DNA of 64,000 bases from Okamejei kenojei (GCA_035221665.1 CM069138.1:86924001-86988000); one strand, 5' to 3'; shown: positions 3,265 to 46,915, counted from the first letter of the stretch. The notes: generated by a model from the letters alone, not told the origin. Made by a program: numbers and translations.

Positions 3265-6200
3265 TGGCGTCAGAAGTGCTTCTTCCTGCGTCTCTGGTCT
3301 ATCGCGTTTTATTTCATTAGTCCCAGTACCCCCTCCTGGTTCCGTGATGGCTTCTGCCTGTCGTAAGCCTGACATCCTAGTCTTTGATGCAGACATCACT
3401 CATCGCTGGAGTGTGTTCCGACGGGACTGAGCATTATGTTACCATCGCCCACCCTGCTGTGGCCCCCGCTGTCAAGGCTTCCCTGCTGCTTAACCTGGCT
3501 GGTCCGGAGGCGCTCGAGCGTTCGGAGTCGTTCGTCTATGGACATGGTGAGAGTGCCCAAGACCCCGATTGCCTGATTGCTAAATTTACGGCGATGTGTG
3601 ACCTTCCCACTAATCACATTTTAGAGCGTTTCAAACTGTTCTCCAGACGCCAGAACCCTGGGGAGTCTATTGACAATTTTATGGCCGCGCTGCGCCAGCT
3701 GGCTCGCCGATGTAACCTGCATGACCTGACCCCCGATACCTTGACCCGTGACATTTTAGTCTTTGGTCTGCGGGATGAAAAGCTGGGCTCTGAGCTGCTG
3801 CGTAAGCCTGATCTGACATTCCATGAGGCGCTGCATGCCTCTCGTTTAGCTGAGGCTGTCTCCTCCGCTGTACCTGACCCTGTGGTCCACACAGCCAGTC
3901 TCGCTGGTCCCCCCGGTACAATTGCTCCCCGGCGACAGTGGGCAAGACCACTGCAGGGCTCCAGACCGCCTCAACGATGTCCAAATTGTAACTTTGTCTC
4001 ACACCGTTTTAATGTGTGCCCGGCGTTGGGGAAAACCTGTAACTTTTGCAACAAGCTCGGGCACTTTTCAGCTGCATGCCGTTCCCGTGGGAACACTGCT
4101 CAGCCACAGCGGAAACCGTCTCGCTACCTGACACGTGATGATTCAGCGTCTGGTTCCCATCTCCAGCACGATGATCTTCCCCCGTCTGACCTGAATCTTC
4201 TCAGAGCGAGCTGGATGTGTTTTCCTTGCGAGGTGCAGCTGGACTGATAACGGACCCGACCGTCCGAGTCACGGTGAATGGCATGGCCTTCTCTGCTAAG
4301 GTCGACACGGGGGCAGCTGCCAATGTTATGTCAACAAGCCTGTTCAGGAAGATAAGAAATAATGAGCCTGTTTCCACAGACAGTGCTGTTTTGCGTGCCT
4401 ATGGGGGTGGCGTGCTTATTCCTGTGGGGAGGGCCACTCTCCACTGCACTGGTCGACCACTCGGCCCCTCTCTTTCTTCCTGCTGGACAGTAAATGTGAC
4501 CCCCTGTTCGGCGTGGAGGCCTGCCAGGACCTCGGGTTGGTGAGCTTCCACAGCGATGTCCACCTGGTAGAGGCACCCCTGAACCCGCTGGCCGAATTCC
4601 CGGACCGGTTCGACTCGAAGCTGGGGAAGTTGCCCTGCAGCTACAAGATTGCCCTCAATCCCGACATCACGCCGGTCGTCCGTCCCCCGCAACCGTGTGT
4701 CCTTTGCCATGAGGGGCAAGTCGAGTCTGCTCTTCGCGAGATGGTGGCCCACGGGCATCCTGGCGCAGTCACGGACTCCACCCAGTGTGGTTTTTCTACT
4801 ATGGTTGTCGCTGCGAAGAAAGACAAGAGCGAAATACGGATCTGCATCAACCCCAAGGACTTGAACTTGGCCATCAGGCGCCCGCACTATCCCATGCGGA
4901 CGGTGGAGGATGTTGCTGCGCAGGTTGGCCCTGCCACCGTGTTCTCGTTCTTGATGCCAAGAGTTCGTTCTGGCAGATACCTCTAGACGAGCGGTCCTCG
5001 CACCTGACAATCTTCAGCACGCCCTTCCGCAGGTATCGCTTCCTCCGCATGCCGTTGGGATCAACTCTGCCAGCGAGGTGTTCCAGAGGACCATGAACAA
5101 CTGTTTGCTGGACTTTCCGTGTGCCATCATTGTCGACGACATCCTGGTTTATGGGAAGAATGGTCGCTGAGCACGACCACCACCTTTCGTCAGGTGCTGC
5201 AGCGGGCCCGGGAGGTCAACCTGAAACTCAACCCGAAAAAGTGCCGATTCCGGGTCCCTGAGGTCACCTATGTGGGGCATGTTTTCACGGCACGGGGCTG
5301 AAGCCCGACCCGCAGAAGACGGCCGCAATATCCGAGATGCCTGGCACCTGCTGACGTGCCTGGCCTGCAGCGCTTCTTGGGCATGGTCAACTAACCTGGG
5401 AAAGTTCATCCCCCGACCTGAGTGAACTGAGTGCCCCTCTGCGGGATCTGGTGAAAAAGGACACTGCCTGGGCCTGGTTCCTGCAACACCAGCGCGCATT
5501 TGACACCCTCAAAGTCTAAGCTGGTCAGCATGCCAACGCTGAAGTACTTCGACCTCCAGCGCCCCATCGTTCTCACTGTGATGCCTCTAAGTTTGGCCTC
5601 GGGGCCGCCTGCCTGCAGATCCATGATGGGGTGCAACTGCCTGTGTCCTACGCGTCCCGCACAATGACGTCCGCTGAACAACACTATGCCCAGATTGAGA
5701 AGGAACTGCTGGCGGTTGTCTTTGCCTGCTCCAAATTCAAGGACTATATCCTGGGCAACTGTTTCACTGTCGAGACGGACCACCAGCCTCTGGTCACCAT
5801 CCTCAACAAGCCAATACACCATGGCCCCTCCCGGCTCCAGCGCATGATGCTCCAGCTACAACGCTTCACTTTCACAGTGGTTTATCGCAAGGGCAAGGAC
5901 ATGGTTGTTGCTGACACGCTGTCTCGGCGGCGCCTCTCTCATCCACAACCCAGCATCCGTACGAGAACGTTCCGATCTGATAGTCCTGGGCGTGAACTTC
6001 GTGCCCTCACGGACAGTTGAAGTCCCTAGCCGAGCACACGGCGGCAGACGCTTCGTCTACAGCAGCTGGCCGCGATCATCAGGCAGGGTTGGCCAGAACC
6101 GCCGTTCTTCCCTGCCGGCCGCTGCGGTGCCTTACTTCTTGGTTCGTGACGAGTTGGTGCTGCGTGATGGTGTGATTGTGAAGGGGCACAAGGTGGTGGT

Positions 6201-7568
6201 GCCCGAAGCACTACGGTAACAATACTTCGAAACCCGCTCATCGTGGCCATCCCGGGGCCGAGGCGAACCCTTTCCATCTCTCAGATCCAGTTCTTCTGGC
6301 CCGACATTGCTTTGCTACTTCCCGGGATAGGGTCTCCGCGTGCCCTACCTGTAACTGCCAACGCTCCGCAGCAACAGTGGCAGCCGCTCCTGCAGCAGCC
6401 AGCTGCTTGACCTGCCATGGTCTGCGCTAGCAACCGACATCTTCCGAGTGCACGGAAAGCACTTCCTGGTGCTTGTCGACTCTTACCTCCAGCTGGTTTG
6501 AAGATGACCAGCTCCACTCCCTCTCTTCCTCCGCAGTCATCGACAAGTTGCGCCGCCACTTTGCCACCTTCGGGTACCCCCGTCAGCCTGCAGTCGGACA
6601 ACGGCAGCCAGTTTCACCAGTGCCGAGTTCCGCGATTTTGCTGAGCGTTGGAAACTTTCGTCATTACGCCAGCAGCCGGAATACCCAACAGAGCAATGGA
6701 CTGGCCGAGCGCATGCGGTCCTGCAGTGCTAAAGGACTGTTGGAACGTTGCCGCCTATCCCGCTCCGACATCTACCTGGCCCTGCTGAACCTCCGCAACA
6801 TCTCCCCGCGACCATGCCCTGGGCTCCCCGGCTCAGCGACTCATGTCCCCGAGTCACAGGCCCACGGTCCCGGTGTCTCAGCAGTCCCTGTCCCCTTCCG
6901 TCCTTAAGCCTGCCTTGGTCCGGGAGCGCATTACCGAAAGACACAGTATCCCAGAAGCATTCCCACGACAGGTCCTGCCGTGTCCTCTGGCCCTCTTCTC
7001 CCTGGCCAGGTCGTCCGTATGTGGTCCCCTTTCTGGCCGTTCCAGGCTGGCCGTGGTCGTCGGCTCTGCCGGTTTCCCCTCGCTCCTACCTGTCAACCGC
7101 GACGGAAGGGTGTACCGCCGGTCCCCGGCCAGCATCTCCGGCTCGTGAACGAGCCTCTCCCACCCCCCCGGCGGCTCCTTATGCCCCCCCGCTGCCCCTG
7201 TTGCGGCCCTGTGCTTTGCCCATTCCTCTGGGGCCGGCCTCCCCTCGTCCTCCTCCGGAGCGCCTCCCGGCTGCGGTCCCGCTTTTCTCCGGCTTCCGCG
7301 CCCTTCTCTTCGCCTCCCTCCCCGCTGCCTTTTCATCGCCAAGGGTTCTCCTGTCCTAGCCCCCCACCATGCCCCGCGTCCCCGCTTGTTACTGTCGGGG
7401 AAGGAGGTGATGGCGAGTGGCGGACCCAGTCTGGTCGCCTGGTCAGGCCGCCGGTCCGCTACGGCGATTACGTGTGATCCTGTATCCCTGTGCTTTACTG
7501 TTTGCACTCACCTGGCGCATGAGACGTGGTCGCCCTGTCACTCACTGTTTGTTTTGGTAGAGGAAGGA

Positions 7569-7772
7569 TGTAGATGATATGTGTGTACACCTTTAATTGA
7601 TAGTAACGATGTCCATGCTAACCACTCCCCCACCAGTTAGTATAATTGTAACCCACACGCCCCTAGCTCTCTCTCTCTGGTGTTCGTGACAGACCATGTA
7701 CAGCCAGGGCTATGTATGACGTGTGCTTAATAAAAGTGCTGAAGACTTAAAGGTGTCTTAGAGCATTCTTCA
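7569..7772 (+). repeat. Gypsy 3' LTR (204 bp)
   Basis: Direct repeat of 3063-3264, preceded by the polypurine tract. Confidence 0.97.
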
Positions 7773-10585
7773 CTTCCCAAACTAGAATTGCAGGAACAAG
7801 AGGAATTGGGAGCACAAATCTCAAATAAGGGAATAGAAGAAACAATATTCTCATTAAAAAATGGAAAAACACCAGGTCCCGACGGATTTAGTAATGAATT
7901 CTATAAAAGTTTTTACGATATATTTAGTCCTCGTCTACAGAAAATGTACACACACGCTTTCAGAGAACAAATATTACCTGATACACTAGCAGAATCTACG
8001 ATTACATTAATACTTAAGAAAGATAAAGATGAGGAAGAACCTGGATCCTTTAGAGCTATCGCGTTGTTAAATACAGATCAAAAAATATTAGCAAAAATAT
8101 TAGCAAGAAGATTAGGTAAGTACGCCATTAAACGAATACATCCGGATCAAATGGGCTTTATCCCTAAGAGACATTCATTTAATAATTTGAGACGTCTGCT
8201 TAATATAATGCACTCATACCAAACTAAAGATCCAAATCGCGCAATTATTTCGCTGGATGCAGAGAAAGCATTCAATCAGGTTGCATGGAAGTATATGGTT
8301 AAGGTATTGCAAAAATTTCAACTGGGAGAGAATTTCATTCAATTGATTAAATTAATATATAATAAGCCAACGGCCAGAATATTAACTAATAATATTTTAT
8401 CCATGAAATTTCAACTGTCAAGGGGTCATAGACAAGGTTGTTCATTATCACCATTGTTATTTGCCCTCATCATTGAACCACTAGTGGAAAGAATTAGAAC
8501 TCATCCGAATATCCATGGATATAAGACAAAATATTCAAACAATAAAATATCATTATACGCTGATGATGTACTTTTGTGCATCACAAAGCCTCATATCACT
8601 ATACCCAATATTTTAAATTTAATTGAGGGTTTCGGTTCATTTTCAGGTTACAGAATAAATTGGAATAAAAGTGAAATCATGTCAATAAAACCGAAAGATT
8701 CTATAAATCTCGTACAATTTCCTTTTAAAATAGCTGGGGGGAAATTTAAATACTTGGGCATTGAAATTACTAGAAGATATCAAGCCATGTTTAAAGCAAA
8801 CTATAACCCTGTACTTAAGAAATTACATAATTTAATTAAATTCTGGAAAACACTCCCGATGTCCTTAATAGGTCGAATAAATGCCATAAAAATGATTTTT
8901 CTACCTCAAATTCTATACTTGTTCCAATCAATCCCACTATATCTACCCAAAAGGTTTTTTAAAAAATTGGACTCAGATATTACAAATTTTATTTGGGATT
9001 ATAAGTCCCATAGAATACAAAGACCACACCTGAATGAACCCAATGTAGTAGGGGGATTAGCACTCCCTAATTTTATGTATTATTATTGGTCGGTAAATAT
9101 TAGAAATATGATTCAATTGTTGGATAATGCTCTTCATCAACCGAATGGATCATTATGGAGAAAGAGACAGCTCCCCCTTTAATATTGGTGCGATCCTTCT
9201 TTCACCAATGACGGTGAATAATACAAGCTACAAACAAAAACTCAATTATACATAGTACAATCAAAATTTGGAAACAAATAAAATACAATTTAAAACTAAG
9301 AAACTTATCTCTCCTATCTCCTATTGCTAAAAACCTTCTGTTTAAACCCTCAATTATAGACAAAGCATTCATACAATGGAAAGAGCAGGAATTAAAACTT
9401 TGGGAGATTTGTATGATACGGGAAAACTATTATCATTTAAACAATTACAACTAAAATACAATCTGGATAACAATCATATTTTAAATATTTTCCAAATATG
9501 TGATTATTTGAAAAACACATGCACATGAATTTCACACAATGCCATTAGACTTACTAGATGAAGTAATGAATGCAAAGGCGGAACCACCAAATTAATTTCA
9601 CATATATATAACATTATACTAAATGCAGTAATACCAACAAACGGAAGTTTGTGAGGTGAGTGGGAAAACGAACTAAGCATAAAAATTTCCAATGAAAGGT
9701 GGAATGAATACTTATTAAATGTGCACAAATGCTTAACATAAGACACACTTTAATACAATTTAAAATTATACATAGATTATACTACTCAAAAAACTAAATT
9801 AAATACAATTTTCCCTAACGTTTCACCAATTTGTGATAAATGCACTGTCAAGAAGCTACTATAGCGCACTCATTCATCTTTTGTACAAAAATTCAAAGGT
9901 TTTGGATGAAATCTTTGAAATGTTCACAAAAGTGTTTAAAATAAAAATGACACCAAAGCCAGAATGGATTATTTTCGGAATGGCAGAAGGTAGTCCGGAA
10001 TTAAATGTGTACAAAAAGAATTTCTTTGATTATGGCTTAATAAAGGAAAAAAAAACTAATCTTAAAATTCTGGAAAAATGCTCCTATACCAACATTAAAT
10101 ATGTGGATTTCAACTATGTTTGAAACACTACACCTGGAAGATATGAGACTCTGCCTGGAAGGAAAATCAGAACGCTTCTTTCAGACGTGGTCTGCATTTA
10201 TAGAACTGCTACAAAGATAGGGTGCAGGAGTACCTCGGACCTTGGTAGGGGGGGATGAAAAACTATGGAGTTGGTGGATTCCTTTTGCGTGATATATATA
10301 ACAGAGTAACTGGCTTTTTTTCTTTTTCTTTTTCCTTTTCCTTTTCTTTAGGGTCTATCTCTTAACCCCCTTTCTCTAATTCTTTGACCAAGGGTTTCTT
10401 CTCCCTTTTGGAACGCTCTTTCACTATCACAACTCTTTTCACCTATTTAACTCTCTTTCTTTCTATTCTTTTTCTTTAAAAGCCATAACATTATGGGGTA
10501 CAATGATTGTGACAAGATATATGTGAAGTACATTGATGTATTTACCTCTAATAAATAAAATATTTAAAAAAAAAACAAAAAAAAC

Positions 10586-12739: not shown

Positions 12740-15700
12740 ATCCTGCCAACTAGAAGGGGGAAGGTGGGTGACAGTGAGAAACGGAAGTAAACATGGAATG
12801 CACAGATCCCCGGGTGTTGTACCTCGTGTGAACAGGTTCATCCACTTAAAAGCTGTCGGGTCAGAAGATGTTGACACACTCTGCGACGCACTGGCTTGCG
12901 ATGCAAAACGTGCCGTTGAGCCAAAATCATGGAGGCCGACGCCAGGCAACGCAGTGGTGGTTGGAGACTCCATTGTGAGAGGTACGGACAGGGGTTTCTG
13001 CTGCAACAGTAGGGATTCGAGGATGGTGTGCTGCCTGCCAGGATCCACGCTGTCACGGACAGTGCAGAAAATCCTCAAGGACGAAGGTGAACAACCGGAC
13101 GTTGTAGTGCATGTCGGCACAAACGATGTCGGAAAGAAGGGGATGAATATTCTGAAGCGTGACTTTAGAGAGCTCGGAAAAGTGCTGAAAGCAGGACCTC
13201 CAGGGTGGTTGTCTCCGGTTTGCTTTTAGTTCCTCGTGCTGGCGAGAGCAGGAACAGGGAGATACAGGACCTGAATGTGGCTGGGGAACTGGTGCAGGGG
13301 GCAGGGATTTAGATTCTTAGACAACTGGGATCTGTTTTGGAGTAAGGGGGAACTGTACAAAAGGGACGGGCTGCACCTTAACAGGTGGGGGACCGGCATT
13401 CTGGCAGGCAGGTTTGCCACTGCTACACAGGTGGTTTTAAACTAAATTGTGGGGTTTACCGAGACGTGGCTGCAGGAGGATCGGGTCTGGGAACTTAATA
13501 TTCAGGCTTATTCATCCTATAGGAAGGACAGGCAGGTGGGCAGAGGAGGGGGGGGGGGGGGGGGTAGCTCTTCTGGTGAGGAATGGAATTCAGTCCCTTG
13601 CAAGGGTAGACATAGGGACTGACGAGGTAGAGTCACTGTGGATTGAGTTGAGGAATTGTAAAGGCAAGAAGACACTAATTGGTGTTATCTACAGACCCCC
13701 TGGATGAAGGGTGTAAGTTGCACCAGGCGTTAAAACTGGCATGTAACAAAGGTAATGCCACTGTGGTGATGGGGGATTTCAATATGCAGGTAGACTGGGA
13801 AAATCTGGTTGGTTCAGGACCCCAAGAAAGAGAGTTTGTAGAATGCCTCCGAGATGGATTCTTAGAGCAGCTTGTAATGGAGCTGACCAGAGAAAAGGTA
13901 ATTCTGGATTTAGTGTTGTCCAATGAACCAAATTTGATAAGAGAACTCGAGGTAAAGGGACCACTTGGAGGTAGTGATCATAATATGATTCGGTTTAATC
14001 TGCAATTTGAGAAGGAAAAGGTTAAATCGAAAGTGGCAGTGATGCAGCTGAACAAAGGGGACTATGAAGGCATGAGGGGGGAGCTGGCCAAGGTAGACTG
14101 AAAAGGGATACTAGCAGAAATGACGATGGAACAGCAATGGCAGGAATTTCTGGGCATAATCCGGAAGACACAGGATCATTTAATTCCAAAAAGGAGTAGG
14201 AGGCAACCGTGGCTGACAAGAGAAGTTAGGGATAGAATAAAACTAAAAGAAAAGATGTATAACACAGCAAAGAGTAGCCGGAAGCTGGAGGATTGGGAAA
14301 CTTTCATAGAACAGAAGGAAACAAAACTGGCAATACGGGCTGAAAAGATGAAGTACAAGGGGAAGCTGGCCAGGAATATCTCTTCTTGCGTATGAAGCAG
14401 TTTGAAGGCGATGTTCACCTGTGTCACAGGATCTTGGAACCGTCATTACATGGTGTGCGGTTTCTGTTCGAGGTGTGTACAGGCTGCTGAAGGGCGCAGT
14501 CCCCAACGTTTCATGTTATGATTGAAAAACGCAACACCAGTTCGCAGACGCTTCAGTGTAACCCACTCTCTGCGGATGGCAACAGTGTTTTGGTAACGGT
14601 CATTGTGGGCGGGATGTTGGGTGTCCTGCCAGCAGGCTCTCCATAGCTCATAGCAGAACAGCCAGGAATATAAAGAAGGACAGTCTTCTTGAGAAATGTT
14701 AAGGGAAAAAGAGGAGCAAAGTCAAATGTGGGTCCCTTGAAGGCAGACACGGGTGAAATAATTATGGGCAACAAGGAAATGGCAGAAGAGTTGAATAGGT
14801 ACTTCGGATCTGTCTTCACCAAGTAAGACACAAACAATCTCCCAGAAGTACTGGAGGACAGAGGATTTCAGGGGATCGAGGAATTGAAATAAATTTTCAT
14901 TAGGCGAGAAATAGTATTGGATAATGGGACAGAAGGATGATAAATCCCCTGGACCTGATGGTCTGCGTCCCAAGGTCCTCAGGGAGGGGACTCCAGAAAT
15001 AGTGGACGCATTGGTGAACATTTTCCAATGTTCAATAGATTCAGGATCAGTTCCTGTGGATTGGAGGATAGCTAATGTTATCCCACTTTTCAAGAAAGGA
15101 ACGAGAGAGAAAACGGGGAATTACAGACCAGTTAGCCTGACTTCGGTGTTGGGAAAGATACTGGAGTCAATTATTAAAGAGGCAATAATGGGGTATTTGG
15201 ATAGCAGTAAAAGGATTAGTCCAAGTCAGCATGAAAGGAAAATCATGCTTGACTAATCTTCTTGAATTTTGTTGACAATGTGACAAGTAAAATGGATGAA
15301 GGGGAGCCAGTGGATGTAGTGTATCTGGACTTTCAGAAAGCCTTTAATATGGTCCCACACGGGAGACTGGTGACTAAAATTAGAGTGCATGGTATTGGGG
15401 GTAGGGTGTTGATGTGGAGAGAAAATTGGTTGGCAGACAGGAAGCAAAGAGTAGGAGTGAACAGGTCCTTTTCAGAATGGCAGGCAATGGCGAGTGGTGT
15501 GCCGCAAGGCTCGGTGTTGAGGCCACAACTGTTTACCATATATATTAATGAATTGGAAGAGGGAATTAGGAGCAACACTAGTAAGTTTACGGATGACACA
15601 AAGCTGGGTGGCAGTGTGAACTGTGAAGAGGATGTTAGGAGGTAGCAGGGTGACCTGGACAGGTTGAGTGAGTGGGCAGATGCGTGGCAGATGCAGTATA

Positions 15701-16512
15701 ATATAGATAAATGTGAGGTTATCCACTGGCAAAAACAAGGGGGCAGATTATTATCTCAATGGGGTTAGGTTATGTAAGGGGGAGATACTGCGAGACCTCG
15801 GTGTCCTTGTACACCGATCACTGAAAGTTGGCGTACAGGTACAGCAGGCAGTGAAGAAAGCTAATGGAATGTAGGCCTTCATAACAAGAGGATTTCAGTA
15901 TAGAAGTAGAGAGGTTCTTCTGCAGTTATATAGGGCTCCGGTGAGACAACATCTGGAGTGTAGTGTGCAGTTTTGGTCTCCTAATTTGTGGAAGGACATC
16001 CTTGTGATTGAGGCAGTGCAGCGTAGGTTCACGAGATTGATCCCTGGGATGACGGGACTGTTATATGAGGAAAGATTGAAAAGACTAAGCTTGTATTCAC
16101 TGGAGTTTAGAAGGATGAGGGGATATCTTATAGAAACATATAAGGACTGGACAAGCTAGATGCAGGAAAAATGTTCCCAATGTTGGGCGAGTCCAGAACC
16201 AGGGCTACAGTCTTAGAATAAAGGGGCCATTTAAGACTGAGGTGAGGAAAACGTTTTCACCCAGAGAGTTGTGAATTTGTGGAATTCCCTATATATTGCC
16301 TGAAGTAGAGGGCAGTGGAGGCCAAATCACTGGATGGATTTAAGTGTTAGATAGAGCTCTAGAGGCTAGTGGAATCAAGGGATATGGGGAGAAGGCAGGC
16401 AGGGGTTATTGATTGGGGATGATCAGCCATGATCGCAATGAATGACGGTGCTGGCTCGAAGGGCCGAATAGCCTCCTCCTGCACCTATTTTCTATGTTTC
16501 TATGTTTCTATG
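12740..16512 (+). mobile_element. Near full-length degenerate CR1 LINE (ORF1 SGNH esterase; ORF2 APE + RT) with internal deletions and an inserted element
   Basis: ORF1 motifs VVGDSIVRG, VHVGTND, DGLHLN; ORF2 motifs VMGDFN, GGSDH, KSPGPDG, YRPVSLTS, YLDFQKAF, SGVPQGSVL, KFTDDTKL; 3' octamer tail (TTCTATGT)n at ~16490-16512. Confidence 0.93.
14380..14660 (-). mobile_element. 5'-truncated Ingi/Vingi-like non-LTR retrotransposon 3' end inserted in CR1, with 11-bp TSD
   Basis: TSD GCCAGGAATAT at 14369-14379 and 14661-14671; minus strand translates RREWVTLKRLRTGVAFFNHNMKRWGLRPSAAC...ETAHHVM and ends CATACGCAAGAAGAG. Confidence 0.7.
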
Positions 16513-16719
16513 ACTACGCCAGTTGTAGGAGGGATTGTGTGCTATACCCGTACCATGTCTGGTTTTATTGTACAGCCATAAAACAGTGTAGATCTGTGGT
16601 GAGTTTATCGAACAAGTCGGTTTATTGAAAGCCTCGACAGTGCGCAACATTAAACACTCTGAGAGAACCTACAGTATTTTTATATTCTCATGAGACAATG
16701 GTTACTTGTAAGCCTAGTC

Positions 16720-19453
16720 AGTGGTAAACTAATACATCCAGTTCAAACTGGGTTTATACCTAAATGACACTCGTTTTTATCATTTGAGTCATTTGTTTAA
16801 CATAATATATTCGCAGAGAATGCCAAATGAAGATCTAACAATTATTTCTCTAGATGCAGAAAAAGCTTTCGACCAAGTCTTATTTTTTCACACTGTTGTA
16901 AAAATTCCAACTGGGAGAAAACTTTATTTTATGGGTGAAGCTTTTATACACTAATCCGACAGCTAGAATACTAACAAATCAAATGCTTTCACCTAAATTT
17001 TATTTATCTAGGGGTAACAGACAAGGATGTGCTCTATCTCCAATGTTATTTGCTTTAGCCATAGAACCTCTTGCCGAGAGTATCAGGTCCCATACAGGCG
17101 TTTAGGGATATAATAATAGAATATTGACTGGCCTTGAGGGGGATACGACATATATTGCCTGAAGTAGATTCATATTGCCCGAGTCGAAGACGAGGGCAAT
17201 ATGGATCTAGTGAGGGCAATATATGTCGTATCTCCCGAAAGAGGACAGTCAATATTGTTATTATTACCCATATCAGACATCTAGAGGAAAATTTGAACAT
17301 CTCAGCTCGGCGGACTTCCACGTAAAATTTAACCAAAATGGACGCGGCAGTCTTCCTGTCTGCCGTTGAATATTCTAAATTTCCCACGCAGCGTCACGTT
17401 TGCCGTCACGTTGCCAAGTTCCCGGATGTGAGACCAGGGGAATATAAAAACTATATTCCCGCTGTTTTAACAGGTAAAGTCCATAGGCGTTCGCAAGAAA
17501 GGGGAATATAAGAAAATATTCCCCTGTTACCCCTGCTGGCAGTAAAAACGAAGGGAATACAATTTTGTAAAAGCATACCTCAGATGTGTGATATGGGTAA
17601 TAATAATAGAATATTGACTGGCCTTGAGGGGGATACGACATATATTGCCTGAAGTAGATTCATATTGCCCGAGTCGAAGACGAGGGCAATATGGATCTAG
17701 TGAGGGCAATATATGTCGTATCCCCCGAAAGAGGACAGTCAATATTGTTATTATTACCCATATCAGACATCTAGAGGAAAATCTTCGTCAAAAGTTGCGA
17801 ACCTCTTCTCGCAGGAGGCTGCCATTTTGCTTGTTTTGTCGAGAACAAATTCTAAATTTCCCACGCAGCGTCACATTGCCAAGTTCCCGGATGTGAGACC
17901 AGGGGAATATTATAGAATATACTTGGGCTTGTTTTGGTTAAAATGTAAAGTCTATTCACTCGTGGCGGCGAAGCCCCGAAGTAGTACTAGTTTGGAGGCA
18001 CCGAGGCAAGTTCTAAACCAGAAACTTCGTTTTATATTAGGGATCAAACATTACAAGAAAATTGGTACTTACCTTAAGTGTTTACAACATCGCGGCGGGC
18101 TATTTATCCCGAGTGAATAGAGAAATTATACGCAAGCGGGCGGAGAGCGGGAGAATTTCCCTTTCAGAAAAATGCTTTCTGTGCGGGCGATGACGAAAAG
18201 TTGGAGTCACCCCGAGACGGTGCCGTGGCAGGCGCGAGAGTTCCCGTTACATGCCACGCGGAGCTGTGACATGATTTCCCGAACATAGCTAAATGCTATT
18301 TACAAAAATGTCGTATAAAAGCATAAATAGTAACATCGTTGTGAGTGTCAGCGTGCCAACAATTCTAAAATGTTGAACAACTCACGTGACGCTCTCTCGA
18401 AGCTGGATCCGCTACTGTATTTAGTCCATAGGCGTTGACAAGCACAAACAAGAATTTCTCATAGACTCCGATGTGTGATATGGGTAATAATAAATAGAAT
18501 ATTGACTGGCCTTGAGGGGGATACGACATATATTGCCTGAAGTAGATTCATATTGCCCGAGTCGAAGACGAGGGCAATATGGATCTAGTGAGGGCAATAT
18601 ATGTCGTATCCCCGAAAGAGGACAGTCAATATTGTTATTATTACCCATATCAGACATCTAGAGGAAAATCTCAACATCTCAGCTCGGCGGACTTCCACGT
18701 AAAATTTAGCCAAAATGGACGCCAAAGTCTTCCTGTCTGCCGTTTGGGAATATAGACCCCTCTAAAATATTCCCTGCGTTGCCTCCTTCGCAAAATCTCG
18801 TTTGCTGTTCGTCACGCTACCTCTTCTCGCCTGCCATTTTGCTTGTTTTGTCCAAATTCTAAAATTTCCCACGCAGCGCCACATTGCCAAGTTCCCGGAT
18901 GAGACCAGGGGACTATATTTACCGCTGTTTTAACACGTAAAGTCCATAGGCGTTCAGCAAGAAAGGGGAATACAAGAAAATATTCCTGTTAACCCTGGGC
19001 AGTAAAAACGAAGGTACAATTCAGATGTGTGAATATGGGTAATAATAATAATTATACGTTTAAACCCGATCTGGTCCACAATTGGTTAAATACATGGATT
19101 TGTGCACCGTGAACAGAGTTTGCATTTACCCATCTGCCGTTTCGCAGCGTCACGTTGCCGTCAGTTGCCAAGTTCCGGTATGTGAGACCAGGGGAATATA
19201 AGAACGCGTTTTAAGGTAAAGGGCGTTCGTAAAAGAAAATATTCCCCTGTTACCCCTGCTGGCAGTAAAAACTAAGGGAATACAATTTTGTAAAAGCATA
19301 CCTCAGATGTGTGATATGGGTAATAATACCAAATATACATGCAGATGATGTACTTTTATACATTACTAATCCCCAAGTTAGTATTCCAAATGCTCTAAAC
19401 ATCACAGAACAATTTGGTTCTTTTTCTGGATAAATCGGAACAAAAGTGAAATC
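16720..19453 (+). mobile_element. L1 RT fragment split by the hairpin-element array
   Basis: IHPVQTGFIP, ISLDAEKAFD and GNRQGCALS before 17110; resumes at 19329 with ADDVLLYITNP..FGSFSG..NKSEI, collinear with L1 copy 3. Confidence 0.85.
17111..19328. mobile_element. Tandem array of an unclassified non-autonomous DNA element with a long terminal hairpin, flanked by TAATAATA direct repeats
   Basis: Three near-identical ~155-bp imperfect palindromes centred at 17187, 17677 and 18565; right-end motif CAGATGTGTGATATGGGTAATAATA (or close variants) at ~17580, ~18470, ~19022 and ~19303; TAATAATA at 17111 and 19321; removing the array rejoins the L1 RT sequence. Confidence 0.85.
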
Positions 19454-20105
19454 GCGCGCAGCGAAACGTGGAGGGGCGTGGCGGGGGCGCGCATGGCAAG
19501 ACGTGCCGGGGAAGCGTGTTGCGGCGAGGTGTGGCGCGCATAGCGAGACGTGCCGGAAGTGCGCGCACCAAAGCGTGGAGAGGCGAGGCGTGGCGGGGGC
19601 ACACAGGGTGAGACATGCTGGGGGCGCGCACAGCGAAGCGTGGAGGGGCGAGGCAAGGCGCGCAGAGTGTTGGGTGGGCGTGCACGGCGAGACGTGTGGA
19701 GGCGCGCACGTCGAAGCGTCGAGGGGCGCGCTCGGCAAAGCGTGGAGGGGCGGGGTGAGGCGGGGGCGTGCGCTGCGAAGCGTTGAGGGTCGAGGCGAGG
19801 GCGCGCACGGCGAAGCGTGGAGGGGCGAAGCAAGGCGGTGGCGTGCACGGCAAGGCGAGGCAGGAGCGCACACAGCGAGGCGTGGTGGGGGCTGCACGGG
19901 GAGGCGTGGCAGGGGCGCGCACGGGAGGCGTGGCGCGGGCGCGCACAGCGTGGCAATAGCGCGCACGGCAAAGCGTGGAGGGGCGAGGCGTGGCGTGGGC
20001 GCGCATGGCGAGGCGTGGCGGGGCGCGTGCGGGGAGGCGTGGCGGGGGCGCGCACAGCGAGGCGATAGCGCGCACGGCAAAGCGTGGTGGGGTGTGGTGA
20101 GGGGG
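19454..20105. repeat. Degenerate GC/CpG-rich tandem repeat (GGCGCGCACGGCGAAGCGTGGAGG-like), upstream part of the CpG island
   Basis: Recurring GCGCGCAC, AAGCGTGGAGGGGCG and GAGGCGTGGCG motifs. Confidence 0.75.
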
Positions 20106-20300
20106 GGGCGCGCATGACGTTGCGAGGCGGGGGCGCGCATGACGTTGCGGGCGGGGGCGCGCATGACGTTGCGTGGCGGGGGCGCGCATGACGTTGCGGG
20201 GCGGGGCGCGCATGACGTTGCGGGGCGCGCATGACGTTGCGGGGCGGGGGCGCGCGCGGCGCGGAAGGGCGAGGCGGAGCCGGGCCGCCATGTTGGCGGT
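20105..20300 (+). promoter_or_regulatory. PAPOLG CpG-island promoter: 6 copies of GCGCGCATGACGTTGCG (CRE/ATF-like TGACGT) with GC boxes, and a YY1-type GCCGCCATGTTG motif
   Basis: Motifs read directly from the sequence; located immediately upstream of exon 1; no TATA box seen. Confidence 0.7.
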
Positions 20301-20448: not shown

Positions 20449-20719
20449 GTAAGTGAGGGCTGGCGGCGCAGAGACCGAGAGACGGAGAGGCCTCGGCGCC
20501 TCCCCCACCCCCCGCTCCCCGTCTGAGGAAGGCCGTCCCTCTCCAGCGCCGCCGCCGGTGTGTGAGTGGGAGCCCGCGGCCGCCCAGCCTCTGCCCTGCG
20601 GGTGTCTGACCCACACACCGAATGCCGGAGTCACTCGGCGGCACAGGCGGCGGCTCAGGGCACAAGGGGCGGCGGATAGTTGGGGCCCAGACCCTTCCTC
20701 ATGCTCAGGGGAGGGGGGG

Positions 20720-21985
20720 AGGGAGGGGAGACTGGGGATATGGAGGGTCGGGAGGGGGGGGGGACTGGGGATATGGAGGGTCGGAGGGAGGGAGGGGGGG
20801 ACTGGGATATGGAGGGTCGGGGGGGGAGGGTGGGTGGGGGGGACTGGGGATATGGAGGGTAGGGGGGGGGGAGGGAGGGGGGCTGGGGATATGGAGGGGG
20901 GAGGGGGAGGGGGGGGACTGGGGATATGGAGGGTCGGGGGGGAGGGAGGGCGGGACTGGGGATATGGAGGGGGGGGGGAGGGAGGGGGGACTGGGGATAT
21001 GGAGGGTCGGGGGGGGAGGGGGGACTGGGGAAATGGACTGGGGATATGGAGGGTCGGGGGGGAGGGGGGGACTGGGGATATGGAGGGTCGGGGGGGGAGG
21101 GGGGACTGGGGATATGGAGGGTCGGGGGGAGGGGGGGGGGACTGGGGATATGGAGGGTCGGGGGGGAGGGAGGGGGACTGGGGATATGGAGGGTCGGGGG
21201 GGAGGGGGAGATGGGGATATGGAGGGTCGGGGGGGAGGGGGGGGGACTGGGGATATGGAGGGTCGGGGGGGAGGGGGGTACTGGGGATATGGAGGGTCGG
21301 GGGGGAGGGGGGGGCGGGACTGGGACTGGGGATATGGAGGGTCGGGGGGGAGGGGGGAGGGGGGGGGAGGGAGGGGGGGACTGGGGATATGGAGGGTCGG
21401 GGGGGGGGAGGGAGGGGGGGGGGGATGGGGATATGGAGGGTCGGGGGGAGGGGAGGGGGACTGGGGATATGGAGGGTCGGGGGGGAGGGGGAGGGGACTG
21501 GGGGATATGGAGGGTCGGAGGGGGGGGAGGGGGAGGGGGAGACTGGGGATATGGAGGGTCGGTGGGGGGGAGGGGGGACTGGGGATATATGGAGGGTCGG
21601 GGAGGGGGGACTGGGATATGGAGGGTCGGGGAGGGGGGGGACTGGGGATATGGAGGGTCGGGGGGGGGAGGGGGATGGGGGGGGGGAGGGGGGGGCACTG
21701 GGGATATGGAGGGTCGGGGAGGGGGACTGGGGATATGGAGGGTCGGGGAGGGGGGCTGGGGATAATGGAGGGTCGGGGGGGGAGGGGAGACTGGGGATAT
21801 GGAGGGTCGGGGGGGGAGGGACTGGGGATATGGAGGGTCGGGGGGGGGAGGGGGGGATGGGAGGGTCGGGTGGGATATGGAGGGTCGGGGGGGGAGGGGG
21901 GACTGGGGATATGGAGGGGCGGAGGGGGAGGGGATGGACTGGGGATATGCAGGGTCGGGGAGGGGGGGACTGGGGATATGGAGGG
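20720..21985 (+). repeat. G-rich minisatellite, ~30-33-bp unit GACTGGGGATATGGAGGGTCGGGGGGGAGGGGG, about 40 copies, in intron 1
   Basis: Tandem units with variable G-run lengths; source of the spurious Gly/Pro-rich ORFs. Confidence 0.95.
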
Positions 21986-23870
21986 GCACCGCAGGCGACG
22001 GTCAGGGAAGTGTGGAGTGATTGGTTTTGGGCTGGGTGAGGCGCACAGACAGCAGCATCGATCAGTGAAACTAGTTGGTGAACGGGAAAGCACAAGGGTT
22101 ACTTGAAATTAGAGGAATCAATATTCACACTGAAGACGGGCACAAGATGCTGGAGTAACTCAGCGGGACGGGCAGCATCTCTGGAGAGAAGCAATGGGTG
22201 ATAGTTCGGGTCGAGACCCTTCTTCGGACCGATGGGTTGTAAGCTGCCTCCCTATTAGACCCTGGGCAGGCATCGTTGATGGGCAAACCTTCCGCCGAAA
22301 GTTAGGCCTCTGCCTCTGGCTTCAATTGATAGCCTTGACCTCCCATCCCAGCGCCTCCCTTCCCTTCCATGTTCCCACAGGGAAGTCCCTAATCTTTGCA
22401 GCATTGCAAATAAATAATATCAGCTGCAGACAGAACTGATAATATAACGTTTTAAACCATGCAGCATTCAATACACCGCGCTGATTAGTAGTTGCTTTAC
22501 TTATGAGGAATTATCTTTTAACATTATGATTTTGTTTGGAGTAGTTAAACTATTTGATTTGTAAACTGCTTGTGTTGAGAACATCTTTGGAATGTTTTTT
22601 TTTAACTGAATTTTGTTTGCATGGGAATCGTATCTGTTATTTCCAAATCTCTTTTTGATCGAAACCCTTTATATAACTGCAGACTTTTGATGTCCAGTGG
22701 TGGAGTTCTGTCTCCTGAATCTTTGACTGCACTGCTAAACTCGGGGTTAGTATACTTTATTTCCAGGAAGCATTAGTAATTGTTTAAGAGGTGGAATGTA
22801 TTTGAAAAATACCTTGTATGTTTCTGGCAAGAAATGTTCTGCTGTTTTCATTCAAGTAGTTAACATAAATTTGTTATGGCCATTGATCAATTTACAATTT
22901 TCTTTTTGTTCATTGTTTGAACAAGTGTTAAAGGTTTTCTTCTGCACTCGCTGCATGTATTGTGTGCATGTAGTGAAAGTGTATTATCTCAATTTACTTT
23001 TCAACTTTAATTTTAATCATTTTAAAATTCCTTGATTTGTGCTGTACGTGATTGCTTAGTGACACTTTGATGCATGCAAGTGTTTTACCTCAACCCAAAT
23101 GCTGGCAATATTTTCTCTTTCAAATAGTTTGATTGGCAGAAAAAGAAGTGGGATTGTATTCATTTACAGTGCCCTCCATAATGTTTGGGACAAAGACCCA
23201 TCATTTATTTATTTGTCTCTGTACACCACAATTTGAGATTTGTAATAGAAAAAATCATGTGGTTAAAGTACACATTGTCAGATTTTAATGAAAGCAATTT
23301 TTATATATTTTGGTTTCACTATGAAGAAATTACAACTGTGTTTATACATAGTTCCCCCATTTCAGGGCAACATAATGTTTGGGACACAGCAATGTCGTGT
23401 AAATGAAAGTAGTCATGTTTAATATTTTGTTGCATATCCTTTGCATGCAATGACAGCTTGAAGTCTACGATTCCTGGACATCACAGTTGCTGGGTGTCTT
23501 CTCTGGTGATGCTCTGCCAGGCCTGTATTGCAGACATCTTTAGATTATGCTTGATTTGGGGGCTAGTCTTCTTCAGTTTTCTCTTCAGCATATAAAAGGC
23601 ATGCTCAATTGGGTTCAGATTTGGTGATTGAGTTGGCCACTCAAGAATTTGCCATTTTTTAAGCTTTGAAAAACTCTTTTGTTGCTTTAGAAGTATGTAT
23701 GGGATCATTGTCTTGTTGTAGAATGTACTGCTGGCCAATGAGTTTTGAGGCATTTGTTTGAACTTGAGCAGATAGGATGTGTCTATACACTTCAGAATTC
23801 ATTATGAAACTACCATCAGCAGTTGTATCATTGAAGATATGTGAGCCAGTTCCTTCAGCAGACATACATG

Positions 23871-28299: not shown

Positions 28300-31267
28300 A
28301 CAGGCCATAACACCCCCACCACCATGTTTCACAGATGAGGTGGTATGCTTTGGTTCTTGGGCAGTTCCTTCTCGCCTCCATACTTGCTCTTGACATCACC
28401 CTGATATAAGTTAATCTTCGTCTCATCTGTCCACAAGACCTTTTTCCAGACCTGCGGTTGCTCTTTTAAGTACTTCTTGGCAAACTGTAACCTGGCCATC
28501 CTATTTTTGCAGCTAACCAGTGGTTTGCAACTGCAATGTAGGCTCTGTATTTCTGTTCATGAAGTCTTCTGTGGACAGTAGTCATTGACAAATCCACATC
28601 TGACTCCCGAAGAGTGTTTCTGATCTGCCAGACAGGTGTTTGGGGATTTTTCTTTATTATGGAGAGAATTCTTCTGTCATCAACTGTGGAGGTCTTCCTT
28701 GGCCTGCCAGTCCCTTTGCGATTAGTAAGCTCACCAGTGCTCTCTTTCTTCTTAATGTTCCAAACAGTTGATTTTAGTAAGCCTAAGGTTTGGCTGATGT
28801 CTCTAACAGTTTTATTCTTGTTTCTCAGTCTCATCATGGCTTCTTTGACTTTCATTGGCACAACTTTGGTCCCCGTGTTGATAAACAGCAATAAAGGTTT
28901 CCAAATGTGATGGAAAGACTAGGTGCTGAGAGCTCTCTTATACCTGCATTAATGAGGCAATTAAACACACCTGAGCAATTATAAACACCTATGAAGCCGT
29001 GTGTCCCAAACATTACGGTGTCCTGAAATGGGGGGACTATGTATAAACATAGCTGTAATCTCTACATGGTGAAACCAAAATGTATAAAAATGGCCTTTAA
29101 TAAAATCTGACAATGTGCACTTTAACCACATGTAATTTTTTTTTTCTATTACAAATCTCAAATTGTGGAGTACAGAGGCAAATAAATAAATGATGGGTCT
29201 TTGGCCCAAACATTATGGAGGGCACTGTATTTTATGTTGCAACAAAATCTTAAATTTATCAATTTAGTGTTCTGATTTTTTAATTTTTTGATTTAAGACA
29301 CAAATAAATTACATCCATAACATTTTAACTGTAGCATTACTGATGCAGTTACGAACCATTATTGCTTAAAACTTTTTTGTAAGCGTTCATATTTGATATA
29401 TAAGCGCATCCTGCAAAGTAGCTACTACTTCAACTCTTTTAACACTACACATCTGGATTAACAGGCATTATACAATTGAATCGTTGTCTATTCCTGTTTT
29501 GAAATGATCGGTGGACATTGTAATGGGAAAAGATAATTGGAACTCTTAGATTAATGGTGGATTTGGAAGTAAACCTGCGCTTGCTTGTCAAGTTTTCACT
29601 GACTGCAATATGTTTATTGTTACCTAAGAGGAAATTTGTTTTGTGTGCTTTTTGGATCTAAGCTTTATGTAACAAGTCTGTTAAGCTGACTTGTGACATT
29701 TTGAAAGTTTGTTTTAAAATGGTTTTGCTGTACTCCAATGCACTTAGTATTAAGCATAATACTTGGATATTAATTTGACAATTTACGTAGACCAAGTGCA
29801 TAGGCCCACTGGCAAATTATCTCTGCTTCATAAATCTTTTGTGTTAAATCTGCTAACACAATACCTGCTGGCCTTCTGGACAAATTGTTTCTGGTTTGCA
29901 CGCTTTGGTGTGCAGTTTATTTGCACAAAAGATCGATTTTGTTACCGGTTCCATTGCAGAACTATCTCTGCAATTGTTCCCATTGCAATTCCAACCACTG
30001 CTCCTTCCCCTAACATGTGTTGGTGCCACTATGTAGAAATTGTGTATTTCTGGCAAATTGGTTTGCAGTTTAAGAAAAAAAGCAAGTGGGAAGATGACTG
30101 AAGAAATTAACTGTGAATGGGCAGCTAGAGGAACGTATTCACGGTCCCAAAACCAAAGCAGGAAGGAAATGGAACACAGTAGTTAAAGAAGCAAACCTTT
30201 TATGAACAGGGATTATATAGAGCTTTAGAGATTTGAAATTTAAGTAACTGTGCACTCAAATTTCAAGTGTAGATTTTCACAGACTCTGCGGGGGGGGGGG
30301 GGGAGAGGGAGAGGGGCGGTTCTTACAAGTACTATATGTTGTGTGTGATTTGAAGTTTATGTATTCCCAGAACTAATCAGTAGGAGAAAAAAAATGAAGG
30401 AGAGCTGCTATGTGTATACATTCTGTCACAATTTGCTCCACCTTTCATTCTCTTTTTGCTTTATGGTGAAGGAGAGAGGGAAATGTCAGAGCACTATAAC
30501 TATGGATCACAAGCCGCATATAGCAGGCAGCAGTGAGGTTTCTACTTGCAGGAATATAGCCGTGAGGTGATTTAAGTTCACATGGGGTCACAACCATTGA
30601 TCCAAGAAAGTGAGTTTGAATCCCAGCACTGGAGCTAAAGCATTTAAGTGTGTAATAAAGCAAGACAATAGAAACACAATTGATAACAGTGCTAACAATG
30701 AAACTATTGGATTGTTTGTCTTTAAAAATGCCACCTGGTTCATTCATATCCATGGGGAAGGAAATCGGTCATCCTTGTCTTTCTGACCAATGTGTACTCT
30801 AAACCCACCAATGGCTATTGTACGAAGAAAGATAATCCAATGTCCCTTAACTTTTAAATTGCCATGATGCTTGTAACCTGTATTTTGTGGTCTTTCTAGT
30901 CAGCCAATGTATTTCAATCCTTTGTTTAAGAAAGAACTGAAAAATCGAAGGTAGACAAAAATGTTGGCGAAACTCAACGGGTGAGGCAGCATCTAGGGAG
31001 ACAAGGAATAGGTGATGTTTCAGGTCGAGACCCTTCTTCAGACTTGATCTTGAATCCTTGATTAGATTTGACCAAGAGCAAGTAGGCTTGCCACATTTCA
31101 AATCTTTTGAGGTTAATACATTTGTCCCTTAAGCATGGTGCATGTTACATAGATACATAGAAAATAGGTGCAGGTGGAGGCCATTCGGCCCTTTGACCCA
31201 GCTCCGCCATTCATTGTGATCATGGCTGATCGACCCCAATCAATAACCGGTGCCTGCCTTCTGGTAA

Positions 31268-46005: not shown

Positions 46006-46915
46006 CAGTGCCCTCCATAACGTTTGGGACAAAAACCCATCGTTTATTTATTTCCCTCTGTACTCTACAATTTGCGATATGTATTAGAACAAATCACATG
46101 TGCACATTGTCAGATTTTATTAAAGGCCATTTTTATACATTTTGGTTTCACCATGTAGAAATTACAGCAGTGTTTATACATAGTCTCCACATTTCAGGAC
46201 TCCATAATGTTTGGGACACAGCAATGTCATGTAAATGAAAATAGTCATGTTTAGTATTTTGTTGCATATCCTTTGCATGCAATGACTGCTTGAAGTCTGT
46301 GATTCATGGACATCACCAGTTGCAGGGTGTCTTCTCTGGTGATGCTCTGCCAAGCCTGTATTGCAGCCATCTTTAGTTTCTGCTTGATTTGGGGGCTAGT
46401 CCCCTTCAGTTTTCTCTTCAGCATATAAAAGGCATGCTCAATTGGATTCAGGTCGGTGATTGACTTGGCCACTCAAGAATTGACCATTTATGAGCTTTGA
46501 AAAAACCCTTTTGTTGCTTTAGCAGTATATTTGCGATTATTGTCTTGCTGTAGAATGAACTGTCGGCCAATGAGTTTTGAGGCATTTGTTTGAACTTGAG
46601 CAGATAGGATGTGTCTGTACACTTCTGAATTCATTATGCTACTACCATCAGCAGTTGTATCATCAATGAAGATAAGTGAGCCAGTACCTTCAGCAGCCAT
46701 ACATGCCCAGGCCGTAACACCCCCACCACCAGATTTCATAGATGAGGTGGTATGCTCTGGATCTTGGGCAATTCCTTCTCTCCTCCATACTTATCTCTTG
46801 CCATCACTCTGATATATTAATATTTGTCTCATCTGTCCACAAGACCTTTTTTCCAGAACTGTGGTTGTTCTTTTAAGTACTTCTTGGCAAACTGTAACCT
46901 GACCATCCTATTTTT

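Follow-up and report, generated by a model that had tools for sequence, protein, structure and literature searches.

The closest described relatives of the element studied here are the animal Cryptons of the CryptonA and CryptonV types. In the available text of Kojima and Jurka (2011) these carry a single intronless gene for a tyrosine recombinase (YR), with a DUF3504 match and intact catalytic residues, have abundant non-autonomous deletion derivatives and show neither long TIRs nor a regular target duplication (PMC3212892). The same text describes animal Cryptons as being without terminal repeats and refers to a model based on circular DNA. In its accessible part, a review from 2026 calls the mechanism of Crypton transposition experimentally undemonstrated and assumes a double-stranded circle (PMC13565253), and the accessible section of a curation guide gives only a short direct repeat for Cryptons (PMC8969392). 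For an active algal CryptonF, the accessible portion of the report describes clean excisions and yet a rise in copy number, and calls for a more complex mode (10.1101/2022.05.23.493040).

Several other mobile systems provide partial parallels, given here as far as the accessible parts of the sources describe them. When attC reacts with attI in integrons, a folded single strand undergoes a single exchange that is resolved by replication, and both integrons and CTX phage depend on a tyrosine recombinase (PMC3458562); in attC, unpaired features determine the strand (PMC5027507). The DIRS YR retrotransposons encode RT/RNase H, have an ITR pair and contain an internal region complementary to both ends (PMC6681497). 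The bacterial elements SE-6945 and SE-6283 are YR-based, carry four core genes, exchange the top strand only across a 6-bp spacer and have a copy-out outcome; their text describes no folded site, and the spacer passes from the left end of the donor to the new right end (PMC9345347). IS200/IS605 elements use strand-specific hairpins and a single-stranded circle, with an HUH enzyme, small hairpins at both ends and a single-stranded target (PMC13565253).

The hairpin analyzed here is the left end of a non-autonomous Crypton, that is, of a YR transposon. It belongs to the second of four Crypton units that lie end to end in an L1-like remnant, within a window of 64,000 nucleotides (the whole stretch of DNA that was analyzed). 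The features, in coordinates of the window, are as follows.

16700..17113, plus strand: L1-like reverse-transcriptase remnant (the target), left part; it resumes at 19327 and runs to about 19430, the outer limits being approximate
17114..17603, plus strand: Crypton unit 1 (non-autonomous, 490 bp), beginning with the 7-nt left spacer and ending with the right-end box; apex at 17186-17188
17133-17185/17189-17241: arms of hairpin copy 1, with a 3-nt GAA loop and a C-G closing pair
17582..17772, plus strand: full fold-back in its junction form, unit 1 right end plus unit 2 left end, with the internal complementary arm as their partner (seen in the folds and as inverted repeats I4 and I11)
17595..17603, plus strand: putative binding box at the right end of unit 1, with the inferred top-strand crossover at 17603/17604 (junction logos, motif scans)
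17604..17610, plus strand: fixed 7-nt element spacer, which in the fold faces a 5-nt partner at 17746-17750 and leaves a 2-nt bulge
17604..18490, plus strand: non-autonomous Crypton unit 2, with the studied hairpin and a nested copy of another family
17623-17675/17679-17731: arms of hairpin copy 2 (the studied hairpin), with a 3-nt GAA loop and a C-G closing pair
17626-27/17727-28, 17651-52/17702-03 and 17671-72/17682-83, plus strand: three tandem 5'-GA/5'-GA pairs
17675-17679, plus strand: C(GAA)G triloop
17738..17777, plus strand: internal complementary region, matching the left arm, the spacer (5 nt) and the far end of the element
17784..17825, minus strand: what is left of the opening codons of the YR gene (parent 1873-1914), with its start codon at 17825-17823
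17911..18400, plus strand: degraded nested family 3 copy at a box within unit 2, left end placed by eye
18491..19045, plus strand: non-autonomous unit 3, apex at 18564-18566, with an exact hairpin and a degraded body
18517-18563/18567-18613: arms of hairpin copy 3, with a 3-nt GAA loop and a C-G closing pair
19046..19326, plus strand: fourth unit, partial, with a right end and no recognizable hairpin (parent 1958-2157 at 78.5%)

The L1-like remnant, which was assigned by reading the sequence against L1-like ORFs found in searches, shows no target-site duplication around the insertion, and the inferred crossover from the fourth unit to host DNA is at 19326/19327. In BLAST-type matches to the parent element (L052), unit 1 corresponds to positions 1-179 (99%), 1688-1760 and 1938-2157, unit 2 to 1-183 (100%), 1873-2038 and 2128-2157, and unit 3 to 2-181 at 99%, with its body at 75%. 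The nested copy matches the family 3 parent by BLAST at 17952-18160 and 18122-18400, with 76% identity. The unit bodies differ because they carry separate internal deletions of one parent, one nested Crypton copy, and some stretches that look degraded or mis-called, at 75-76% identity with the parents. The YR gene remnant reads antisense to the strand that bears the tandem G·A pairs (the G·A strand).

The host genome (2.76 Gb) has repeats of vertebrate type. A DNA search gave 99-100% identity in all 40 scored of 1,273 candidates. Exact matching found the left-arm pattern 1,988 times and the apex pattern, which fits family 2 as well, 2,176 times, whereas reversed controls gave none. The family is young, at about 2,000 copies, and contigs of four sequencing runs place the element in several studies and in organisms labelled A, B and C. 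Longer copies bear the start of an ORF on the opposite strand, longer relatives of which carry DUF3504. A search of the genome with one of these relatives located a complete parent of 2,157 bp, whose 478-aa YR ORF is free of stops. The hairpin lies downstream of this gene, and the G·A strand is antisense to it. The catalytic residues R177, H299, R302, H325 and Y334 are all present, the invariant Arg of the YR being the residue that precedes the Gly in the motifs.

Protein P0001, which is 92% identical to the parent YR, matches DUF3504 above cutoff and QRICH1 and Phage_integrase below it. Its predicted model (mean pLDDT 76.5) has Cre as the best fold match (Z 19.4, rmsd 3.5 over 298 residues), with an integron integrase at Z 14.7; searching solved structures by sequence returned weak YR and QRICH1 matches only. 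In a YR tree built without named Repbase CryptonA/CryptonV references, the parent YR groups with the sea-urchin protein P0012 and family 2 (100/100). A Pfam search with the 76-aa window remnant alone gave one chance-level match, and a pattern search of viral contigs gave 9 matches, with no relative among them. The element is a Crypton of the animal DUF3504 type. It shares with the described animal Cryptons the single YR gene and the absence of long TIRs: its ends have only the box (ATAW plus one T) in common, spacer duplication occurs in a few copies and no target duplication is regular, and the non-autonomous derivatives have both parent ends in common. It differs from them in a terminal fold-back complementary to the joined ends, in a box-spacer-box target and in one-sided junctions. 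The YR is the only ORF of at least 300 aa in L056 and the parent's sole long ORF, and an HUH transposase (IS200/IS605, Helitron, Replitron) is absent, so an HUH reading was rejected. A Penelope/hammerhead reading was also dropped.

The three apices foreseen in the original prediction are all in place, with C-G-closed GAA loops at 17186-17188, 17676-17678 and 18564-18566. The accessible text on such loops describes C-G-closed GNA triloops as especially stable in DNA (PMC3201870). Tandem GA pairs are likewise present, although the studied hairpin holds three of them where one had been proposed. Both proposed internal loops exist and take a finer form: TGAAG/GTGAG resolves as T·G, G·A, A·G, A-T and G·G, and GCCTTGA/GAAAGAGGA as a tandem GA, then three pairs and a 2-nt bulge. 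Relative to the studied hairpin, copy 1 has one different base and copy 3 one extra base in the spacer. The internal loops are indeed near-identical while the unit bodies differ, but because the family is young the identity among three window copies says little about selection. The middle loop may recall the core of a self-cleaving deoxyribozyme; such a reading is unlikely, since family 2 has other letters there.

Folded as DNA, the 208-nt stretch reaches −79.2 kcal/mol on the plus strand (z −21.5, 0/200 shuffles as stable) and −68.7 kcal/mol on the minus strand (z −17.4, none of 200 shuffles close). Across the whole window, ten other hairpins of the 13 found contain one tandem GA and no tandem TC. 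An Rfam search of 16500-20000 to E 5 found nothing over the hairpin and two weak snoRNA matches outside the hairpins.

To gain insight into whether the fold is selected, copies were compared within and between families. Mismatch positions are constant rather than randomly variable in 87 aligned genomic copies, where the hairpin interior has one common variable site, C17723T (53/87), which produces a G·T wobble on the plus strand. The sister family 2 retains the apex and the mismatch positions. Of 53 positions counted from the apex in families 1 and 2, 35 are pairs that stay the same, 9 carry compensatory and 2 wobble-compatible changes, 1 is paired in just one of the families and 6 are mismatched in both at the same places, so that covariation is found as anticipated. 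The middle loop keeps its position in family 2 and changes its letters, from GA/GA to AA/GC. Homogenization of the arms can also yield compensatory changes.

The one-strand G·A design recurs in mostly unalignable families. Sheared tandem G·A pairs in DNA prefer a pyrimidine-GA-purine context. Among 17 Crypton hairpins, picked after the pattern had been noticed, tandem G·A pairs number 39 on one strand and 0 on the other, 34 of the 39 in this context; 10 other multi-base mismatches include 4 of the form GC/AA. These hairpins come from the host genome (3) and from metagenome loci (14), and represent about 13 unalignable lineages that are nevertheless related. Relative to the YR gene, the G·A strand lies antisense in 16 of the 17 families. 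An unselected, strand-neutral scan covered 80 of 437 confirmed metagenome YR loci, a sample that was not dereplicated. In 64 downstream hairpins it counted 53 tandem GA on the antisense and 3 on the sense strand; the corresponding counts were 3 and 1 for 32 upstream hairpins, and 0 and 1 for 11 within the gene. Of metagenome loci with at least 600 nt downstream, 23/47 were positive for the design, and another scan added a few (L108, L125, L157). Two YR loci of the host genome, L089 and L093, showed no hairpin of such design, which is not universal among Crypton-type YR loci.

Computed strand energies bear out the expected preference in part. In the comparison of 17 families the G·A strand of the studied family folds at −75.6 against −65.3 for the other, and it is clearly favored in some further families; most gaps are small, and two of the 17 are equal or slightly reversed. 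Taken together, the fixed mismatches, the compensatory changes and the recurrent one-strand G·A pairs argue for the original proposal that the plus strand forms a recognition substrate rather than a decayed inverted repeat.

The left arm of the fold contains the start of the element. The far arm complements, in this order, the left arm, the spacer and the opposite end of the element, so that the outer stem can close only where the two ends of the element meet. The flanks of 62 left and 64 right junctions give a palindromic target consensus, ATAW|W-N4-W-WTAT, in which a 6-bp spacer separates two inverted boxes similar to the element's own. At the folded junction the boxes are 7 nt apart on the top strand and 5 nt apart on the complement; only this folded form brackets the target's 6 bp. 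The same 7/5/6 geometry is found in family 2, whose YR is about 55% identical to that of family 1, and in family 3, with a YR at 38% identity, an upstream hairpin, the G·A strand sense and a C(GCA)G loop. A 7/5 spacing was also read by eye in the metagenome families L108-L113, L123, L125 and L147. The far-end complement is clearly above shuffles in 3 of 20 tested loci (L125, L123 and L120; 82 v 27, 64 v 35 and 56 v 33), modestly above them in L103, L112 and L136, and 13-15 nt or absent in others. A far-end match in L156/L159/L161 proved to be an internal repeat and no terminus, and was discarded.

Junctions were read on contig C1, at its first 90 matches or clusters for an arm pattern that does not include the spacer; tandem junctions (3) and insertions into family 2 ends (4) were set aside. 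The element's 7-nt spacer is present at 80/87 left junctions and at 0/73 right junctions, where 67/73 have the target's N4 spacing. Against the half-and-half outcome expected of a staggered two-strand exchange followed by replication, this gives a binomial p of 2e-22 with copies treated as independent. For family 3, 32 right-side junctions divide evenly between A (16) and T (16) at the first spacer base; as this base is non-homologous, the crossover is placed at the left spacer border, with no homology needed there. By YR chemistry a crossover at the left spacer border is one of the top strand, so the top strand would be the one exchanged; in families 1, 2 and 3 alike, this strand bears the G·A pairs. 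Tail-to-tail pairs (L002, L016, L249, L303) have exactly four target bases between the ends. Seven of the 87 left junctions deviate, some with target-spacer letters on both sides (L247, L248, L340), as also read in L015 and L020, suggesting an occasional fill-in or repair step. Tandem junctions are no proof of circles, because insertion into a right end yields the same sequence. The one-sided junctions show a single exchange; a folded substrate does not follow from them.

Based on its sequence features, the hairpin is probably a folded single-stranded recombination site for the element's YR, moved by a single exchange at the folded junction. In the mechanism that we propose, the G·A strand would fold as single-stranded DNA or as an extruded cruciform, and its left arm and spacer would pair with the internal complement to form a box-spacer-box site with a bulged 7/5 spacer. 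The YR would then recombine this folded left end with the double-stranded, target-like right end, joining the two ends of the G·A strand; replication would free a single-stranded circle while the other strand retains the donor copy. In the circle the junction would refold on the internal complement, whose far part could now pair with the right end. One top-strand exchange by the YR at the left border of the target spacer, with the resulting junction resolved by replication, would follow; with a single top-strand exchange the left side would always receive the element spacer and the right side that of the target. Right ends would stay good targets, leading to tandem and tail-to-tail arrays, and the sheared G·A pairs and GNA loop may both stabilize the fold and mark the strand to be used.

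The main rival of such a folded substrate is a strand-biased exchange of duplex ends, with a circle that is double-stranded before integration and a hairpin that folds on the released single strand to serve priming or second-strand origin, protection or YR loading. It accounts equally well for the one-sided junctions, which fit both, and the top-strand-only exchange and 6-bp spacer of SE-6945, as described in the accessible text (PMC9345347), provide a precedent, except that there the spacer is passed on from the donor's left to the right end and here it is fixed on the left. That the bulk of the stem, which has two more YR-like boxes on each arm, is 25-70 bp away from the crossover, and that a hairpin went undetected at some YR loci, also suit it. 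It leaves unexplained that the complementarity of the far arm spans precisely the junction and that, in several families, spacers of 7 nt and 5 nt on the two arms go with a 6-bp target. It is on account of this 7/5 spacer and complement across the junction that we favor the folded substrate, and we regard strand-biased duplex exchange as rather unlikely, though the most serious competitor. The model of the literature, as far as the available texts give it (PMC3212892; PMC13565253), has a double-stranded circle, two-strand exchange and inverted arrays of YR-binding boxes that act as duplex; the hairpin would then be a by-product of box symmetry and arm homogenization. Three box motifs per hairpin arm and three to four at the other end would fit such arrays, as would the predicted fold nearest to Cre; the complete absence of the element spacer from right junctions does not, and homogenization would remove mismatches, yet tandem GA pairs on one strand and in one context persist. 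We consider this model improbable.

Tandem G·A pairs are common in RNA too, and the plus-strand hairpin is very stable when folded as RNA (−139.2 kcal/mol, z −20.6), so that RNA readings had to be weighed, namely a hairpin that is miRNA-like or a regulatory antisense, and an RNA copy from which a DIRS-type reverse transcriptase would work; the DIRS internal region that complements both ends, noted above from the accessible text (PMC6681497), would agree with the last of these. We judge a role in RNA very improbable. Against it, the YR gene has the G·A strand as its antisense strand in nearly all the families, the parent is without a reverse-transcriptase ORF, tail, 5' truncation or regular target duplication, Rfam gave no match across the hairpin, and the C-G-closed GNA triloop is, in the available description (PMC3201870), a DNA-stable motif. 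Least credible of all is a decayed MITE-like inverted repeat or an assembly artefact. The neighboring window bodies do appear degraded and the genome has other long palindromes, but exact copies on many contigs, recovery in several studies and organisms, and fixed mismatch positions with compensatory changes speak against it, and this reading is refuted by the copy counts, the cross-family G·A design and the covariation.

The original prediction drew on attC and on IS200/IS605 (HUH) ends; since the enzyme is a tyrosine recombinase, attC, together with CTX phage, is the right analogy and IS200/IS605 the wrong one. By our comparison, the likeness to attC and CTX as described in the sources above would extend to unpaired features that favor one strand of a palindrome, a single exchange, replication, and arrays built by repeated insertion. 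Unlike an integron, the element is eukaryotic, has its recombinase gene within itself and would have its site completed by far-end pairing; its marks would be tandem G·A pairs and a 7/5 spacer, and its target is a degenerate AT-rich palindrome found genome-wide. The integron hallmarks (IntI, attI, promoterless cassettes with R/L boxes) are absent, the YR being of DUF3504 type and inside the mobile unit, so by analogy the element would work like attC but is no integron. With DIRS elements it shares a region complementary to both ends, here within the terminal hairpin; in contrast to them it has neither RT/RNase H nor an ITR pair, and its single strand would derive from DNA and not from reverse transcription. 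On this basis animal Cryptons may well be eukaryotic transposons of integron-like chemistry, with a single-strand circle, a splint-folded, G·A-marked 7/5 junction and one YR exchange that replication finishes.

The element class itself was already known; to it the analysis adds an intact parent, the target with its cut position, a 7/5/6 spacer geometry and junctions that are one-sided. In the literature on Cryptons that was covered, mainly open-access papers and exclusive of Repbase Reports and supplements, neither the hairpin nor the model is described. Single-strand exchange with replicative resolution would give exactly the clean excision plus copy gain described in the accessible report on the algal element (10.1101/2022.05.23.493040). 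If the proposed mechanism is true, folded single-stranded DNA recombination by tyrosine recombinases, as in integrons and CTX phage, would reach animal genomes and Cryptons would be linked mechanistically to DIRS elements. A 478-aa vertebrate enzyme and about 400 nt of cis sequence would then constitute a complete, break-free system for inserting single-stranded DNA, and the ancestors of the domesticated DUF3504 genes would have been readers of folded DNA.

The locus offers an intact vertebrate enzyme, mapped ends, a target consensus, a predicted cut position and strand, and a natural deletion mapping of the element. Among 82 derivative units, which descend from a few master deletions and are not independent, 78 retain 175 nt or more at their hairpin end. 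In 44 of the 82 the breakpoint falls at 175-184, just beyond the complement, with most of the interior lost.

The Crypton families of the genome beyond family 1, whose hairpin with tandem G·A pairs is under study here, were compared with regard to their own hairpins, and the remaining repeats and hairpins of the window were catalogued alongside them. Names of the Gypsy-like, L1-like, CR1-like and Tc1-like elements follow a by-eye reading of their translations.

17911-18400, and loci L088, L091 and L092 of the same genome: family 3, a second Crypton family
L090:4468-4620 (locus of the same genome): downstream hairpin of a fourth Crypton family
19420-20280 and 20700-21990: GC-rich tandem repeat of 24-25 nt and strongly G-skewed minisatellite of 34-36 nt
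3381-7500, 48752-50166 and 57500-58600: broken Gypsy-like elements
7743-9182: broken L1-like element
13600-16500: broken CR1-like element
23481-23798, 28466-28918 and 46488-46790: broken Tc1-like elements
About 56199, 52028 and 11623: additional long hairpins, 48-55 bp

The family-3 hairpin lies on the sense strand, upstream of the tyrosine recombinase (YR) gene, and has a C(GCA)G loop. This family also carries a second palindrome, near-perfect and 214 bp long, immediately ahead of the start codon, pieces of which reappear at the far end of the element. In the fourth family, the hairpin has a single tandem GA, which is on the antisense strand, and an irregular apex. A terminal hairpin was not detected at L089 and L093, two further YR loci of this genome, which are possibly another type of Crypton or a domesticated gene; at L089 the frame stays open over 459 aa, and the locus forms a long branch in the YR tree. 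The survey of hairpins in the window found tandem GA pairs to be absent from the three additional long hairpins. The G-skewed minisatellite could form G-quadruplexes.

Frequent insertion sites of family 3 are (TA)n, TATAG-type repeats and the boxes of family 1. The right ends of family 2 serve as insertion sites for family-1 elements (L086, L087, L242, L311, L315 and L328), and arrays can therefore mix families. Several insertions (window 17113/19327; L002 and L029) fall in one shared segment of an L1-like reverse-transcriptase gene, in agreement with the target consensus of two inverted boxes around a 6-bp spacer. In a minority outcome, letters of this spacer flank both sides of the insertion (L015, L020, L247, L248 and L340), and such cases may record a second-strand fill-in route.

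At L032, a derivative sits in frame within an L1-like ORF2. The N-terminus of the YR, the antisense hairpin and L1 sequence are thereby linked in one open frame of >640 aa. This fusion is probably due to chance.

Close relatives of the element are present in the organisms labelled B and C as well as in marine metagenomes (sequencing runs X11, X17 and X18), and among named proteins the closest comes from a sea urchin (67% identity across the YR region). This hints at horizontal transfer.
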